From Ignavibacteria bacterium (GTDB taxonomy: Bacteria > Bacteroidota > Ignavibacteria > Kapaibacteriales > UBA2268), in the NCBI GenBank assembly GCA_040383785.1, contig JBEICW010000001.1, forward strand, positions 1-29,289: a stretch of 29,289 bases of DNA. The letters are read 5' to 3'. Each line of letters starts with the position of its first letter. Position 1 is the first letter of the stretch. This document shows, piece after piece, positions 4,795 through 10,292 of this stretch. The translations under genes and the position numbers were made by a program. The notes beneath the pieces are model-generated. The model searched no databases. It saw nothing but the letters and a program-made list of their open reading frames with translations, and was not told the DNA's origin.

Positions 4795-4985
4795 CGGTTT
4801 TTAACTTTACAAGCTTGTTAATCATACAAGGAAGGACTATCGGATTTATAAGATTGACTATTGTTAATTTCTTTTTTCAAGTTTTCAATCAACAAAACCT
4901 ACACTATATTTTTCCTATCCATTGCTTTCCAATACAAAACTATGTAGTCGTTCATTATTTATACTTAAATTACTTCTAATTTTTT

Positions 4986-6104
4986 TTATTTTTTTTCTTT
5001 ATTGCCACCCTCTTGCGTAGCATATTTAATACCCATAATAGTACCTACTATTGAAAAAGCATTTGTTAGCAATACGCTAAACATATTAGACCAAGTTGAA
5101 CCAATAATTTGTGTTTCCTTACCTGTAACCATAGCCAACCAATATAGTATAGTTGTTACAACGCCTACTCCTATAATTACCGCCAAAGCACATTTAACAA
5201 TCACTTTTATTAATTCACTTTGACTTTTTTTAATCATTACATCCAAATCATTCAACGCAGCGTTCTTTTCTAACTCTATTGAGTTTTTTAGTTTTTCTGA
5301 ATTTTCTAATTCTACTTTCAAATCTTTTGAAAGTATATCTATTTTATTTTTACTATTGACACTTTCGGTTATATCGGTAGCAATTTTAATTATACTTGTA
5401 ACATTTCCTTTATTATCTAAAATCGGATTGTAAGTCGCTTGTAAATAAATAACGCTACCATCTACTTTTTTTCTTTCAAATATTCCATCAAAAAACTTAC
5501 CACTTCTTAATGTTTCCCAAAATAGTTTGTAATCATCTGATTTAGAATACTCGTAGGCAACAAATATGCTATGATGCTTCCCGATAATTTGATTTTTTTC
5601 TTTAGGTTTATATCCCATCGCTTCTAAAAACAAATCGTTTGCATCTAAAATAAAACCATCTACATTAAAAGTAATACTTGCAGTGCTTCGGTTAATTGCC
5701 TCTAATTGTTTTTTACTATTGACAATGTTAGTGATGTCGGTAGCAACTTTCATTATTTTAGTAATCTTACCACTATCATCTAAAATAGGATTGTAAGTCG
5801 CTTGTAAATTAATAAGGCTACCATCTTTTTTTACTCTTTCAAATTCCCCTTTATAATACTTACCACTTTTTAATATATCCCAAAACTTTTCGTACTCCAA
5901 TGAATCTGAATAACTTTCACATACAAAAATTTTATGGTGCTTCCCAATAATTTCCTCATGGTCATCTACACCATATCCCATAGCTTCCAAAAAGATAGGA
6001 TTCACACCTAAAATAATACCATTTAAGTCAAAATATATTATGGCATTACTTCTATTTATCCCTTCAAGCCTACTCAACAACTCCTCTCTTGATAAATTTT
6101 TCAT
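4986..6104 (-). CDS. Tandem PAS/PAC domain protein with coiled coil and two C-terminal TM helices
   Basis: Two repeats of AINRSxAxIxFxxDGxIL.AN..FL..MGY....IIGKHH.IFV...Y..FW..L.SG....G.FER.K.DGS.I.LQATYNPILD..G......K.ATDIT, as in BdlA/Aer-type chemoreceptor PAS domains; no MCP signalling domain; two hydrophobic helices at the end. Confidence 0.9.
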   Translation of the reverse strand: MKNLSREELLSRLEGINRSNAIIYFDLNGIILGVNPIFLEAMGYGVDDHEEIIGKHHKIFVCESYSDSLEYEKFWDILKSGKYYKGEFERVKKDGSLINLQATYNPILDDSGKITKIMKVATDITNIVNSKKQLEAINRSTASITFNVDGFILDANDLFLEAMGYKPKEKNQIIGKHHSIFVAYEYSKSDDYKLFWETLRSGKFFDGIFERKKVDGSVIYLQATYNPILDNKGNVTSIIKIATDITESVNSKNKIDILSKDLKVELENSEKLKNSIELEKNAALNDLDVMIKKSQSELIKVIVKCALAVIIGVGVVTTILYWLAMVTGKETQIIGSTWSNMFSVLLTNAFSIVGTIMGIKYATQEGGNKEKK

Positions 6105-6107
6105 TTT

Positions 6108-6284
6108 TTATGCTAATGTATCTTGTGATAATTTGTAATACTTTTCTCTTTCAGCAAGTCCTATTGTACCGCCATTAATTCTTTTAGTGATAGTAACGAA
6201 ATCTCTTTTATCAGCCATGCCATTTAATTTCTTATCAATAGCATATTCCCAACAAGCACTATCTAATAGGCGTGTCTATACCAT
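6108..6284 (-). pseudogene. C-terminal remnant of a GH19 (chitinase-like) phage endolysin
   Basis: Own translation MV*TRLLDSACWEYAIDKKLNGMADKRDFVTITKRINGGTIGLAEREKYY...; 'SACW' and 'ITKRINGG.GL..R' are typical of GH19 endolysin C-termini; in-frame TAG at 6276-6278; catalytic N-terminal part missing. Confidence 0.75.
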
Positions 6285-6296
6285 AAAAATTTAGTA

Positions 6297-6324
6297 ATTC
6301 TACTTTTCTCATATAAAATGTCAA
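6297..6324 (-). promoter_or_regulatory. Possible canonical sigma70-type promoter, TTGACA-N16-TAGAAT
   Basis: Reverse complement reads TTGACA ttttatatgagaaaag TAGAAT, upstream of the GH19 remnant and the PAS gene. Confidence 0.4.
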
Positions 6325-6342: not shown

Positions 6343-6993
6343 TTAAAATATTTTTTTCTTTTTTAGGATATAAACATAAACACCAATTCCTAAAACTAAA
6401 GCACCGACAAAAAAGTAGTTTATATTTTGAGAGTTTCTTAAATAATAGCTAACCACTTCATTGTATTCTGATTTAAAAAGATTCGCTTCGTCTTTTCTGC
6501 GATTTTTCAAATTTGTTAACACTTTCCCACTACCAGAATCGGTAATCGCAATATTATGCCATACAGTGCTTGGGTCTCTACCTTCATTAACCGCTTTCAA
6601 AACACTATCGCCGTTTTTAGTATATTTAAGACTTCCTTCTCCAGCATTATAAGCTAAATCAATTAATGCGGCAAACTGATTATCATTCAAATCTCTTGTA
6701 ATCCAGTTTTTGATTGTATTTGCTTTTTTTCGCAATTCAAAATCTAATTCGTAATCAGCTCTTTCTTTGGTTATTGAAATGCCTTTTCTAACTTTTGTTC
6801 CGTCAGATAAAGTATCCCAACTTCCCCAGCCAATACTATAACTTTTTCCGTCTGGATATGAATACAGAACGGCACTATCTGGTTGTTTTGTTGGATTAGA
6901 ATAATAACTTACCTTATCTGGATATTTACTTGCCAGAGATTCCCATTTTTGAGTAAATGGTTTTACTATTGAAAGTGCATTTTCTAAATCCAT
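6343..6993 (-). CDS. GH24 phage-type lysozyme with C-terminal membrane anchor
   Basis: KWES (putative catalytic Glu), YSIGWG, LNDNQFAALIDLAYNAG, LKNRRKDEANLF; tail YFFVGALVLGIGVYVYILKKKK. ATG 6993 preferred over the track's 7020 start. Confidence 0.85.
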   Translation of the reverse strand: MDLENALSIVKPFTQKWESLASKYPDKVSYYSNPTKQPDSAVLYSYPDGKSYSIGWGSWDTLSDGTKVRKGISITKERADYELDFELRKKANTIKNWITRDLNDNQFAALIDLAYNAGEGSLKYTKNGDSVLKAVNEGRDPSTVWHNIAITDSGSGKVLTNLKNRRKDEANLFKSEYNEVVSYYLRNSQNINYFFVGALVLGIGVYVYILKKKKIF

Positions 6994-7412
6994 CTGAACT
7001 GAATTAAAAATATTAACCACATTAAAGACAATAAGAAACTGCTTATTCTAATATCGTTTGGATGTATTATATGCTTAATTTTAGAAAGCAAGTCATCATA
7101 CAAACTTTCTTTATTTCCAGAATAATTACCATTTGCATTAGGACTTACATACCACAAACTTTTTCCACGCATTAAATTTAGTGTAAAGTCAAACCAACCT
7201 GCTCTAATCAACAAGCAAGTTATTGCACAAAACAATCCCCATTTAATTGTGTATTCAGTTGTCAAAAGATACGCAAAGAATAAGCATAATGCCGTATAAA
7301 CACTTGCTTCAAAAATGTGGTTAATTCTTCTGTTTTTTTGAATTTGTATTGTATCAATTTTGGCGTGTGCGATAGTAATTATCACAACTATTACAAAAAA
7401 TAATATTGACAT
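6984..7412 (-). CDS. Multi-pass membrane protein (holin candidate)
   Basis: Three to four hydrophobic segments; stop overlaps the lysozyme start. Confidence 0.7.
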   Translation of the reverse strand: MSILFFVIVVIITIAHAKIDTIQIQKNRRINHIFEASVYTALCLFFAYLLTTEYTIKWGLFCAITCLLIRAGWFDFTLNLMRGKSLWYVSPNANGNYSGNKESLYDDLLSKIKHIIHPNDIRISSFLLSLMWLIFLIQFRWI

Positions 7413-7418
7413 AGATTA

Positions 7419-7910
7419 TTAATAGTTTAACTTCTGTTTCTGTGTATTAAAAAAAGAACTACTTACATAATTTTTAAATCCACCATCGGCATTATTGAAG
7501 AATGGGTGTAAGCCAAACATCATATCAGATGATACATAGTTTTTAAATCCACCAGAGAATTCAGAACTTGGTGCTGATGAAACTTGAGCATTTATTAATA
7601 CTTCTTCAAGTTGTGGTTTTTTCAATCCTCCAGCAATTCCACCACCATACATTAATTCTTCAAGTGGAAATAAATCAGGACGATAACAGCCACTTTTAGG
7701 GTCTCTTGTATTACAAGCAATACCAGAATCTTCTAATACTGGAGCTTCTTCTACATCGTCTAATGGTTCTTCTTTTTCTTTTTTCAAATCAAATCCGCCT
7801 TTGTCTGTTGGTTCGGATTTTGTTGATGCCATTGTTGTTTTTGGTTTAAAAATGAAATAAAGTGCCGCTGCACCTAATCCCAAACCGACTAAAAGTTTTG
7901 TATTGTTCAT
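7419..7910 (-). CDS. N-terminally anchored membrane protein
   Basis: MNNTKLLVGLGLGAAALYFIFKPK; internal duplication GGFKNYVSS x2. Confidence 0.8.
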   Translation of the reverse strand: MNNTKLLVGLGLGAAALYFIFKPKTTMASTKSEPTDKGGFDLKKEKEEPLDDVEEAPVLEDSGIACNTRDPKSGCYRPDLFPLEELMYGGGIAGGLKKPQLEEVLINAQVSSAPSSEFSGGFKNYVSSDMMFGLHPFFNNADGGFKNYVSSSFFNTQKQKLNY

Positions 7911-7952
7911 ATTGTTGTTTTTTGTTTTTGTTTTGTTTTTTATGAGAATTAA

Positions 7953-8480
7953 CTAGGAAAATATAACTACATCATTAGGAAGAACAAATAAAGGATTTTT
8001 GTCAATTTTTGGAACACAACGGCATCCAGCAATACCACACGCCATTTCTTCGCCTTCTTTACAAGTATTTTGTGGCTGATGATAATCACCACCCATAAAC
8101 ATATCAAGACCTTTATTATTATTAGGTTTACTAATTGGCTTACAAGTTTTAATAGGAATCTGAACGCAAAGACCTGCGTTAATAGAATCTTTGGTACAAT
8201 AAGAAGGATATAAATCATCTACCAATTCTTCACCTTCTTTGCAAGTTGTACTAGCAACATACTCTTGAACGCAATTTTTCATAAATTCATCTTTCTCTTT
8301 TTTCCAATATTCTTGAGATTCCATAACCCGAGGTCTAGCCATACGAGAATATTCCCATTCACATTTGGTTAAAGCTGCTTGATTCACATTTGATGCCGCA
8401 CTGCCTTTTGGTTTAAAAATTAAATAAAGTGCTACTGCACCTAATCCTAAACCGATGATTAATTTTGTGTTCTTCTCCAT
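7953..8480 (-). CDS. N-terminally anchored Cys-rich membrane protein
   Basis: MEKNTKLIIGLGLGAVALYLIFKPK; about 10 Cys; TCKEGEE x2. Confidence 0.8.
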   Translation of the reverse strand: MEKNTKLIIGLGLGAVALYLIFKPKGSAASNVNQAALTKCEWEYSRMARPRVMESQEYWKKEKDEFMKNCVQEYVASTTCKEGEELVDDLYPSYCTKDSINAGLCVQIPIKTCKPISKPNNNKGLDMFMGGDYHQPQNTCKEGEEMACGIAGCRCVPKIDKNPLFVLPNDVVIFS

Positions 8481-8518
8481 TTCTTTGTTTTTTAGTTAAT
8501 TAATGGTAACATATTATT

Positions 8519-8899
8519 TTAATTTTTTTTGTTTACTTGATACATAATAAAATATAAAACTCCTGTTATACCAATTACCCACATCCACTTTTGAGTGTTG
8601 GTTAAAGGTTTTTTATCGTTGGTTGTTGGCGTATCTGCACTTACTTCTTTAACTACATTAAATGGTATTGAAACCCAAACTTGCCCTGCCATATTCCAAT
8701 TAGGCATTTTTCCTTCTAATGTTGTTTGAATTGGAATAGCACTTTTTGTTTCCATCCCTTGCATACTTGGGTTGTTTCCACCCTCAATAACATCGCCTAC
8801 TTTAAAACTTTTTACACCTCTTTGTCCATTGCTTGTAGGAGATGCTAATGTAATCAAGTATTCAGCATCATAATCTTTGATAAACTTAAACTTTGCCAT
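8519..8899 (-). CDS. C-terminally anchored membrane protein
   Basis: Tail KWMWVIGITGVLYFIMYQVNKKN. Confidence 0.8.
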   Translation of the reverse strand: MAKFKFIKDYDAEYLITLASPTSNGQRGVKSFKVGDVIEGGNNPSMQGMETKSAIPIQTTLEGKMPNWNMAGQVWVSIPFNVVKEVSADTPTTNDKKPLTNTQKWMWVIGITGVLYFIMYQVNKKN

Positions 8900-8954
8900 A
8901 ATTTTTATTTTTGTTGTTGTTTACTTGCAAAATGTATTAAACCTAAAAATGCAA

Positions 8955-9311
8955 CTATTTCGTTGTTACAACATCACTTCTTACCCAGCCAGTCCAGATA
9001 ATATCTCCATTAGTATCTTTTTCTTGTACTTGATACCAAGTGCCGTCTTTCTCAACTTTGCTCTTGATATATTTCAGTTCTTGTATCTTTTGATACGTTT
9101 TCAATATTTCGCTTTGTGTATTTGAATCCTTACGAAGTCTTGCACCAAGTTTAGTTTTTACGGAAGTTGGTACTGCTGTGTCTGGTTTTTCTTCTTTCTT
9201 TTGTTCTTTTGTATCGTCTGGTGCGGTTAAATATAGTTGTTTATATATCAAATACAATCCAATAACTATTGGAACGCTGAATAAGATTACAAGTTTTGTT
9301 TTTTTGTTCAT
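8955..9311 (-). CDS. N-anchored protein with a bacterial SH3 (SH3b) domain
   Basis: Anchor MNKKTKLVILFSVPIVIGLYLIYK; ARLRKDSNTQSEIL...GTWYQV...GWVRSDVV matches the SH3b pattern. Confidence 0.75.
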   Translation of the reverse strand: MNKKTKLVILFSVPIVIGLYLIYKQLYLTAPDDTKEQKKEEKPDTAVPTSVKTKLGARLRKDSNTQSEILKTYQKIQELKYIKSKVEKDGTWYQVQEKDTNGDIIWTGWVRSDVVTTK

Positions 9312-9321
9312 TTTGTTTGTT

Positions 9322-9696
9322 TTATAAAAAAAATATTGCTGTTATTCCCAATGCTGCAATTTTATATGCGTCTCTTATATCCGACCTTCTGTGTCCTTCA
9401 ACAACTTCTAAAACATAATCTTCACAATTAAAAAACAATTCATTCCATACATCTCTCTTGCACCGCCGAGATGCTTTTATGATTTGTTCGCCAGACACTC
9501 CAGTTCTAACTATTTTCAAAATTTCTCTGCCTTTGATAAATTCGGCATAAGTTTCTGAACATACAGAACCGCCATACTTATTTTTTATATATGGAGAGTT
9601 ATGATAAACTTTTGAGCCATACACAATTCCTATGTGATAGCACAAAGGCACATCTACACAGGAACAATAAATTACATCACCAGTTTTTAATTTCAC
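9322..9696 (-). CDS. LRAT/H-NC-like (permuted NlpC/P60) acyltransferase or phospholipase with C-terminal hydrophobic tail
   Basis: GDVI...YHIGIV...VYHN...FFNCEDYV; His precedes NCE, as in the LRAT family. Confidence 0.75.
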   Translation of the reverse strand: MKLKTGDVIYCSCVDVPLCYHIGIVYGSKVYHNSPYIKNKYGGSVCSETYAEFIKGREILKIVRTGVSGEQIIKASRRCKRDVWNELFFNCEDYVLEVVEGHRRSDIRDAYKIAALGITAIFFL

Positions 9697-10292
9697 ATTA
9701 ATCTATTTGATACCACCGTCCAATTGATTACTTTGAAAAAGTCCTCAATATAAGATTTTCTATCAGCTAAATGTTTTAGGTAATATGCGTGTTCCCAAAC
9801 ATCCATTCCGAGCAATACATTGCACGACATTGCCATAATTGGATTATCTTGATTAGCGGTAGTAACGATTGAAAGAATACCATTTTTCTCTATTAGCCAA
9901 ACCCAGCCAGAGCCAAAAACTTCTGCACCAGCTTTGCTAAATTGTTCTTTGAAATTTTCATAAGAACCGAAATCTCTAATAATACTATATTTTAGTTTAT
10001 TGCTTGAATCTTTGTAAAAATTGTTGTAAAAAGGAGATAAATTTTCAAAATACAAAAAGTGGTTATAGTAACCACCTCCGTTTTGTCTTAACTTTAATGT
10101 ATATTTTTTGTAATCCGATAATATTTCAACAATAGAAGCAATAGAACCATCATTTGTGATAAATTCTAATTCATCATTAAGATTATCCGTGTATTTTTTG
10201 TAATGCACGTTATAATGCTCATTCATAGTTTCGGTATCTATGTATGGCATTAATGAAGATAGTCCATATAATAAAGGTCGTCTAAAATACAT
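9693..10292 (-). CDS. sod: Fe/Mn superoxide dismutase (Mn-type signature residues)
   Basis: HYNVHYKKY, NGGGYYNH, FGSGWVWL, NQDNP, LGMDVWEHAYY: all four metal ligands present. Confidence 0.95.
   Translation of the reverse strand: MYFRRPLLYGLSSLMPYIDTETMNEHYNVHYKKYTDNLNDELEFITNDGSIASIVEILSDYKKYTLKLRQNGGGYYNHFLYFENLSPFYNNFYKDSSNKLKYSIIRDFGSYENFKEQFSKAGAEVFGSGWVWLIEKNGILSIVTTANQDNPIMAMSCNVLLGMDVWEHAYYLKHLADRKSYIEDFFKVINWTVVSNRLM

Follow-up and report, generated by a model that had tools for sequence, protein, structure and literature searches.

What is the function of a phage gene that sets two PAS sensor domains in front of a pair of transmembrane (TM) helices, encodes no conventional signalling output and lies among lysis genes? 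The question is raised by an open reading frame on a 29,289-nucleotide stretch of DNA (referred to here as the window), which is the entire 29-kb contig of a fragmented MAG. Judging wholly from architecture and gene context, we lean, with a little better than even confidence, towards the view that the product of this gene is a one-component membrane effector, gated by a signal, that sets the time of phage lysis. The reading frame is intact over 372 codons, and the parts of the encoded protein are as follows (coordinates in the window).

4986-6104, minus strand: PAS-PAS-stalk-hairpin gene, 372 aa (open reading frame, Pfam and AlphaFold2 [AF2] model)
5730-6044, minus strand: PAS1 (aa 21-125), Pfam PAS_3/PAS_9; the nearest solved sequence is MmoS, 3ewk (FAD)
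5364-5684, minus strand: PAS2 (aa 141-247), from Pfam, alignment with the Aer PAS domain (8dik) and an internal blastn repeat
5214-5363, minus strand: coiled-coil stalk (aa 248-297), within a single AF2 helix (246-327) and of fixed length across the family
5121-5213, minus strand: TM1 (aa 298-328), from hydropathy and AF2, continuous with the stalk; 82% mean identity
5016-5114, minus strand: periplasmic turn and TM2 (aa 331-363), with 33 invariant residues (alignment A1)

The first-pass annotation had read the protein as two PAS domains, a coiled coil and two TM helices with no kinase, chemoreceptor (MCP) or cyclase output domain, and Pfam, AF2 and hydropathy bear this out. Pfam detects the two PAS domains at aa 33-120 and aa 144-247 (E ~1e-23), the two domains (PAS_3, PF08447; PAS_9, PF13426) scoring 83.9 and 83.5 bits against curated cut-offs of 25.6 and 27, and finds no match in the 372-aa protein to MCPsignal (PF00015; E up to 0.1), HATPase, GGDEF or cyclase domains. 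More than 100 clusters of full-length homologues exist, at 79-97% identity across the whole length. In the AF2 model, which was built on an alignment of 29 sequences (mean pLDDT 77; 83-90 in the PAS domains), both domains have the fold of the PAS superfamily (a five-stranded antiparallel sheet with flanking helices), and they are followed by an uninterrupted helix in which the stalk runs into TM1 (residues 246-327), a four-residue turn and a second helix (332-364) that corresponds to TM2; Kyte-Doolittle peaks fall at 298-328 for TM1 and 339-362 for TM2. The absence of a signal peptide and the Lys-rich C-terminal end indicate a topology with the sensor inside, a short loop outside and the C-terminus inside. 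A homodimer prediction for residues 240-372 scored 0.00, which is evidence neither for nor against a dimer.

The tail had also been called holin-like, a description that holds for its topology but not for family kinship. Taken alone, the hairpin consists of two TM helices, N-in/C-in, with a Lys-rich end, but no holin family in Pfam or PHROG matches it, and the whole protein has 372 aa versus less than about 150 aa for holins. The possibility that the tail is a paralogue of the 88-aa, two-TM holin-like protein encoded beside it in related phages was ruled out by hhalign (alignment A1 versus A2, probability 0.7%). A different origin is suggested by the 'methyl-accepting chemotaxis protein' label that JGI gives to many homologues and by the PAS pair, which resembles the BdlA/McpS type; the protein would then be a truncated chemoreceptor or decoy. 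We give this next to no credence, because the missing MCPsignal domain refutes it and because the C-terminal region forms a conserved module of its own, confined to phages and strongly selected.

The nature of the signal is suggested by the relatives of the two PAS domains. The nearest by sequence (phmmer) are those of MmoS (3ewk), Aer (8dik) and NifL (2gj3), at E 7e-9 to 6e-5, together with LOV domains, and the top Foldseek match is the MmoS tandem PAS (3ewk, E 2e-17), followed by DosP, NifL, LOV-PAS and FixL. The Trp that these FAD sensors conserve in the F-alpha helix has an aligned counterpart in the phage protein; the flavin-contact stretch RHPDMP of Aer and the NSG stretch of NifL/MmoS are not conserved in the phage PAS domains, so that flavin is a candidate cofactor. 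Tandem PAS domains of the BdlA/McpS type are predicted FAD binders (PMC8694187). On these comparisons, the signal is likely to be read by PAS domains of a flavin or redox type. Ahead of PAS1, the N-cap helix (aa 1-20) is 97% conserved. PAS1 and PAS2 are a tandem duplication (window 5338-6065, minus strand) that still retains 71% nucleotide identity (blastn against the related contig L091). Aer, BdlA, McpS, NifL and MmoS (8dik, 2gj3, 3ewk; PMC8694187) are the closest PAS relatives, alike in tandem arrangement and (Aer, NifL and MmoS) in the conserved Trp, whereas their outputs are an MCP, kinase or NifA-binding module and the output of the phage protein is a membrane hairpin.

We evaluated the association with lysis genes over 83 related loci (80 of them fetched from IMG/VR), calling and clustering the open reading frames within 3.5 kb and annotating the cluster representatives. 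The PAS-hairpin gene is 75-92% identical across these phage loci, and the homologue contigs, which reach 308 kb and carry gp32-like, DnaB, RNR and baseplate genes, belong to large phages. An endolysin-type gene lies on the same strand within 3.5 kb in 67 of the 83 loci, and no more than two genes away in 56; these lysins fall into four classes, namely GH19 (37 loci), a PG_binding_1 type of 269 aa with PHROG endolysin matches (20), GH24 (15) and Peptidase_M15_3 (11). The 88-aa two-TM protein, which has a charged tail, adjoins the PAS-hairpin gene in 54 of the 83 loci, and Phage_holin_4_1 (27 loci), a three-TM protein of 104 aa (12) and a lipoprotein (12) also recur. The usual order is 88-aa gene, PAS gene, lysin, holin and lipoprotein, although both the lysin and the 88-aa gene can be found to the left or right of the PAS gene. 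About 50 GH19/GH24 tblastn matches served as an internal control: with flanks of up to 10 kb, all but one fell within 3.5 kb. Sixteen loci are lysin-less: four contigs end just after the gene, one locus has GH19 on the opposite strand, in a subclade (L008, L011-L013 and L021) replication genes flank it and the surrounding 3.5 kb hold no lysin, and six further loci have no recognisable lysin within that distance. The loci are phylogenetically related, so that they do not represent 83 independent events; the linkage persists through replacement of the lysin (four classes) and reordering, which argues for function rather than inheritance alone, and the proposed tie to lysis genes thus extends to the homologues in both gene orders; the unlinked homologues that the first-pass annotation had named as grounds for refutation are not what these loci show. 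One locus (L009:11574-12269) encodes, two genes beyond PAS-hairpin, a 231-aa protein that has a TM helix at each end and weakly matches 4HB_MCP_1; it precedes a lipoprotein-like 151-aa gene and GH19, a spanin-like position.

This linkage bears on a reading in which the protein is a host-takeover effector unrelated to lysis: TM2 would dock on a conserved host inner-membrane machine (of respiration, transport, division or envelope synthesis) and modulate it according to redox state, and closeness to lysis genes would be a mere clustering of late or membrane genes. The subclade that sits among replication genes and the presence of an Fe/Mn superoxide dismutase in the same operon of the window both agree with such a role. 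Adjacency across four lysin classes and both orientations is left unexplained by it, and a GAF-fused variant of the protein also lies five genes upstream of a GH19 and glucosaminidase gene; overall we judge a host target unrelated to lysis to be unlikely, both as a function and as an account of the gene order.

If the gene product times lysis, which part of it acts? When 1.84 billion representatives were searched with a profile built from the final 85 residues, 100 representative clusters matched (74 below 1e-10; best E 1.5e-41), and the match was always C-terminal. The parts ahead of the hairpin differ, comprising PAS-PAS, a single PAS, GAF (PF01590) or, most often, a domain of about 45 aa with a long coiled coil, and the members of the stalk-hairpin family share a C-terminal coiled coil and two TM helices with the TM2 motif W, TN, FSI, GT and G (alignments A1 and A4). 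Because the same stalk and hairpin stand behind PAS-PAS, PAS, GAF and a domain served by a kinase and receiver, the hairpin is the constant output and the sensors are interchangeable inputs, in support of the earlier proposal that the membrane segment is the output. The GAF-stalk-hairpin variant (L096:5843-6925, 360 aa) has GH19 and glucosaminidase genes five and six genes downstream. A five-PAS bacterial protein (P0005) that aligned into the tail was rejected as an alignment artefact, as its sequence has no hairpin.

The stalk-hairpin family is restricted to phage DNA. It occurs in more than 700 IMG/VR stretches, and its look-alikes in the Atlas are 100% viral; 185,579 species genomes gave only four hairpin matches, all on short MAG contigs from four phyla. 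These contigs (L178-L181) are binned in MAGs labelled Saccharibacteria, Saprospira, Flavobacteriales and Verrucomicrobia and are probably mis-binned phage contigs, so that the MAG holding the window may likewise not be the host. Searches of Pfam, PHROG and PADLOC with the hairpin module gave no match, and PHROG and PADLOC searches with the hairpin, the 88-aa protein and a 142-aa protein of the window (described below) gave nothing useful. Among cultured phages, a hairpin protein (P0152) had no match, tblastn of the whole 372-aa protein gave PAS-level matches only, and megablast of the window gave none. A membrane-anchored, phage-only and mobile gene could also be expressed with late genes for superinfection exclusion, anti-defence or some other task of a membrane gatekeeper. 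To this we assign a very low probability, given that PADLOC returned no match, that a cytoplasmic PAS, GAF or kinase input would be unexpected for sensing an incoming phage, and that the linkage is to lysins and not to injection or immunity genes.

The hairpin is also encoded beside separate signalling proteins. Short hairpin proteins match over 555 stretches in IMG/VR; the contigs (L093, L097 and L098-L177) are of marine and freshwater origin and measure 16-322 kb. A TM-PAS-HATPase_c kinase is present in 71 of the 79 loci analysed and a stand-alone receiver in 69, the receiver, where present, always lying no more than two genes upstream of the hairpin gene; kinase and receiver are directly upstream of it in 66-71 of the 79. 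Lysis genes (the 88-aa family, Phage_holin_4_1, or M15, GH19 or Amidase_2 lysins) are near the kinase-linked hairpin in 35 of these loci, and the PAS domain of the phage kinase is 41% identical to PAS1 of the window. On the evidence of these sequences, the window protein is the directly fused form of a larger kinase-receiver-hairpin system. This triad, itself uncharacterised, has the same stalk and hairpin (invariant W, TN, FSI, G-T and G) and the same PAS type in its kinase, and it often belongs to the same lysis cassettes, where the 88-aa and Phage_holin_4 genes are again its neighbours; the input differs, being phosphotransfer to a stand-alone receiver plus a small N-domain in the triad and a fused PAS in the window protein. 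In several contigs (L107:3567-4037, L111, L119, L132, L137, L163 and L166) the place held elsewhere by M15 or GH19, with the 88-aa two-TM gene on one side and Phage_holin_4 on the other, is taken by a DUF5675 protein (phrog_1501, 156 aa), which may be an unrecognised lysin. A four-TM protein of about 356 aa repeatedly follows Phage_holin_4 or the hairpin gene in kinase-linked cassettes (L167:6650-7690 and relatives, 14 loci).

The genes upstream of the PAS gene in the window include the following.

6108-6275, minus strand: C-terminal fossil of a GH19 endolysin (about 54 codons and a stop codon), separated from the PAS start by 3 nt
6297-6324, minus strand: best sigma-70-like promoter match (11 of 12 consensus positions; weak), between the lysozyme and the fossil/PAS gene
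6343-7020, minus strand: GH24 lysozyme with a C-terminal TM anchor (PF00959, E 2e-17; PHROG endolysin), the upstream neighbour
6984-7412, minus strand: four-TM protein of 142 aa (open reading frame, hydropathy), overlapping the lysozyme start

The first-pass annotation had placed the gene directly after a GH19 remnant and next to a GH24 lysozyme, and both neighbours are confirmed. In translation the fossil, which has several stop codons upstream, is an almost exact copy of the C-terminal end of the intact 212-aa GH19 in L091, and the lysozyme lies upstream of both the PAS gene and the fossil. The 142-aa protein has no Pfam or PHROG match; together with the anchored GH24 it forms a candidate pair of holin and tethered endolysin for the window phage. 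In a scan of the window for sigma-70 promoters and terminators, site counts equalled the shuffled expectation.

How the gene came to lie here is indicated by L091, a 28-kb contig that is the closest informative relative; its PAS protein is 92% identical, and its cassette consists of a three-TM protein, the 88-aa two-TM protein, the intact 212-aa GH19 and the PAS gene. Nucleotide similarity between the window and L091 (blastn) is a single block, 4955-6267, at 90.8% identity, and nothing else, and the other window genes have no homologue among the 83 related loci. The confinement of the shared block to 4955-6267 indicates that the PAS gene entered the window phage by recombination along with the last 163 nt of its GH19 neighbour. 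We conclude from this comparison that the 1.3-kb block was acquired from an unrelated phage and came to lie again beside a muralytic enzyme. For the same reasons (other genes without homologues there, and similarity to L091 only at 4955-6267), we rejected the assumption that the window derives from the jumbo phages in which most homologues are found.

Conservation within the stalk and hairpin indicates how the protein might work. Residues T331-T363 (the loop and TM2) are identical in 27 non-redundant sequences; in 65 distinct nucleotide sequences, each of these 33 positions is encoded by as many as six synonymous codons (mean entropy about 1 bit, as elsewhere in the gene). An invariant TM2 protein sequence with freely varying synonymous codons indicates purifying selection at the protein level rather than recent spread or a nucleotide element. 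On a helical wheel, small and polar residues (S336, N340, S343, T347, S351, G354 and G358) form a stripe within about 100 degrees of arc, and TM2 contains GxxxG. The stalk is conserved in length within the PAS family: every one of the 37 unique sequences scored has 44 aa between PAS2 and the stalk motif, the distance onward to TM2 is a constant 50 aa, and indels are absent from the stalk. In the kinase-linked family, stalk lengths are 79, 87, 94, 107, 114 and 121, in steps of about 7 residues. A fixed stalk in the one family and steps of about 7 residues in the other are as a register-dependent coiled-coil transmitter predicts. The PAS-hairpin proteins of L008 and L029 are 77% identical, versus only 25-41% for the replication genes of the same phages.

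The invariance of TM2 can be read in terms of a binding partner. As an antiholin-type regulator, the hairpin would bind the phage's own holin (the 88-aa two-TM protein or Phage_holin_4) and block or promote its oligomerisation according to the PAS signal, as T4 RI acts on T. Environment-sensing antiholins have precedent (PMC11413866, PMC7182436), the 88-aa gene is immediately adjacent in the 54 loci noted above, and Phage_holin_4_1 genes are close. TM2 is invariant, however, versus 35% mean column identity in the 88-aa family, with no sign of co-variation; both holin families are absent from the window and several other loci, and kinase-linked hairpins often have no holin nearby. An invariant TM2 beside highly variable holins, and loci without those holins, weaken the strict antiholin model, which we regard as unlikely. 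Constancy of TM2 across very different holins fits the conserved host target discussed above at least as well as it fits a lysis partner. The host-target reading is favoured further by the absolute conservation of 33 residues despite saturated synonymous sites, by a level of conservation above that of core replication genes (as for auxiliary genes that fit host machinery) and by the portability of the gene between unrelated phages.

For the preferred reading, a lysis-timing effector, we infer the following sequence of events, including the cofactor and signal, the coupling of stalk to TM helices and the action at the membrane. The two cytoplasmic PAS domains, being of the Aer/NifL/MmoS/BdlA kind, would probably carry flavin and report redox or respiratory state. 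Their support would be a rigid, length-invariant stalk that continues as one helix into TM1, so that a conformational change in the PAS pair could be passed down the stalk and shift TM1 against the invariant, polar-striped TM2. The hairpin might thereby switch between an inert and an active state in the inner membrane; in the active state it would leak ions or depolarise the membrane and so fire adjoining holins sensitive to the proton-motive force, or would otherwise license or block hole formation, and the time of lysis would follow the internal state of the host. The fused window protein would then represent a short-cut of the larger system, where the same hairpin takes its input from a TM-PAS histidine kinase together with a stand-alone receiver. 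That the stalk-hairpin constitutes a new class of signal-gated lysis trigger, a small pore or depolariser opened by a redox or flavin sensor or by a kinase-receiver relay, is a more tentative proposal, to which we give rather less than even weight.

Lysis timing sets burst size and phage fitness. To our knowledge, the only understood environmental input to lysis is its inhibition by superinfection, in T-even phages and ICP1. The T4 holin T with its antiholins RI and RIII, and TeaA/ArrA of ICP1, resemble the present case in that a phage membrane protein in or near the lysis cassette allows an environmental cue to alter lysis time (PMC11413866, PMC7182436). T4 RI differs in that it senses superinfection in the periplasm via a small soluble domain and binds the periplasmic domain of the holin, whereas the phage hairpin protein has a cytoplasmic sensor (tandem PAS, GAF, or kinase and receiver), a coiled coil and a hairpin, has no sequence similarity to RI, and its contact with a holin is hypothetical. 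Closer in topology are the pinholin S21 68 and antiholin S21 71 of phage 21, which have two TM helices, N-in/C-in, and a small/polar face with glycine-zipper spacing; by this likeness, one helix of the hairpin could line a small pore that the other could restrain. Pinholins, at about 70 aa, lack a sensor domain and have a SAR helix as TM1; the phage hairpin is not homologous to them and is preceded by 290 aa of cytoplasmic sensor and stalk. In Firmicutes, the LytSR two-component system controls the holin-like and antiholin-like proteins CidAB/LrgAB (PMC4830213, PMC6997555), and the likeness here lies in a signalling system that takes its cue from membrane or energy state and targets membrane proteins of holin type. 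LytSR is cellular and transcriptional, whereas the phage sensor is fused to or directly precedes the membrane protein, an arrangement that implies post-translational control. None of lysis inhibition, pinholin/antiholin pairs and LytSR shares sequence, architecture or cytoplasmic-sensor logic with the hairpin system, which is thus probably without characterised precedent. Our literature searches found no description of a PAS-coupled or kinase-coupled phage lysis protein, in agreement with the remark in the first-pass annotation that no characterised example was known.

If the lysis-timing reading is correct, uncultured freshwater and marine phages would time their bursting by the respiratory or metabolic state of the host, with a module that moves between unrelated lineages, and viruses would thereby have a second means, distinct in mechanism, of sensing the condition of a host that they are about to kill. 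Lakes and oceans hold the family in abundance (IMG/VR contigs in the hundreds, with phages of 28 kb up to 320 kb). The hairpin would likewise add a membrane-acting output domain to those known for PAS, GAF and receiver signalling, and a domain so compact (about 90 aa) and naturally modular could serve as a switchable part for lysis or permeabilisation; the invariance of 33 of its residues suggests that its mechanism or target in the membrane is highly specific.

Further genes accompany the lysis genes on the minus strand of the window. An intact Fe/Mn superoxide dismutase (9693-10292, minus strand; Sod_Fe_N and Sod_Fe_C, E 8e-36) lies in the same operon as the PAS-hairpin and lysozyme genes and is a second redox-related gene in this 29-kb phage. 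The run at 7419-9311 (minus strand), which has no homologues in the 83 loci, encodes small proteins of 163, 175 and 118 aa with near-identical N-terminal TM anchors, the 118-aa one bearing SH3_3, together with a C-terminally anchored protein of 126 aa.
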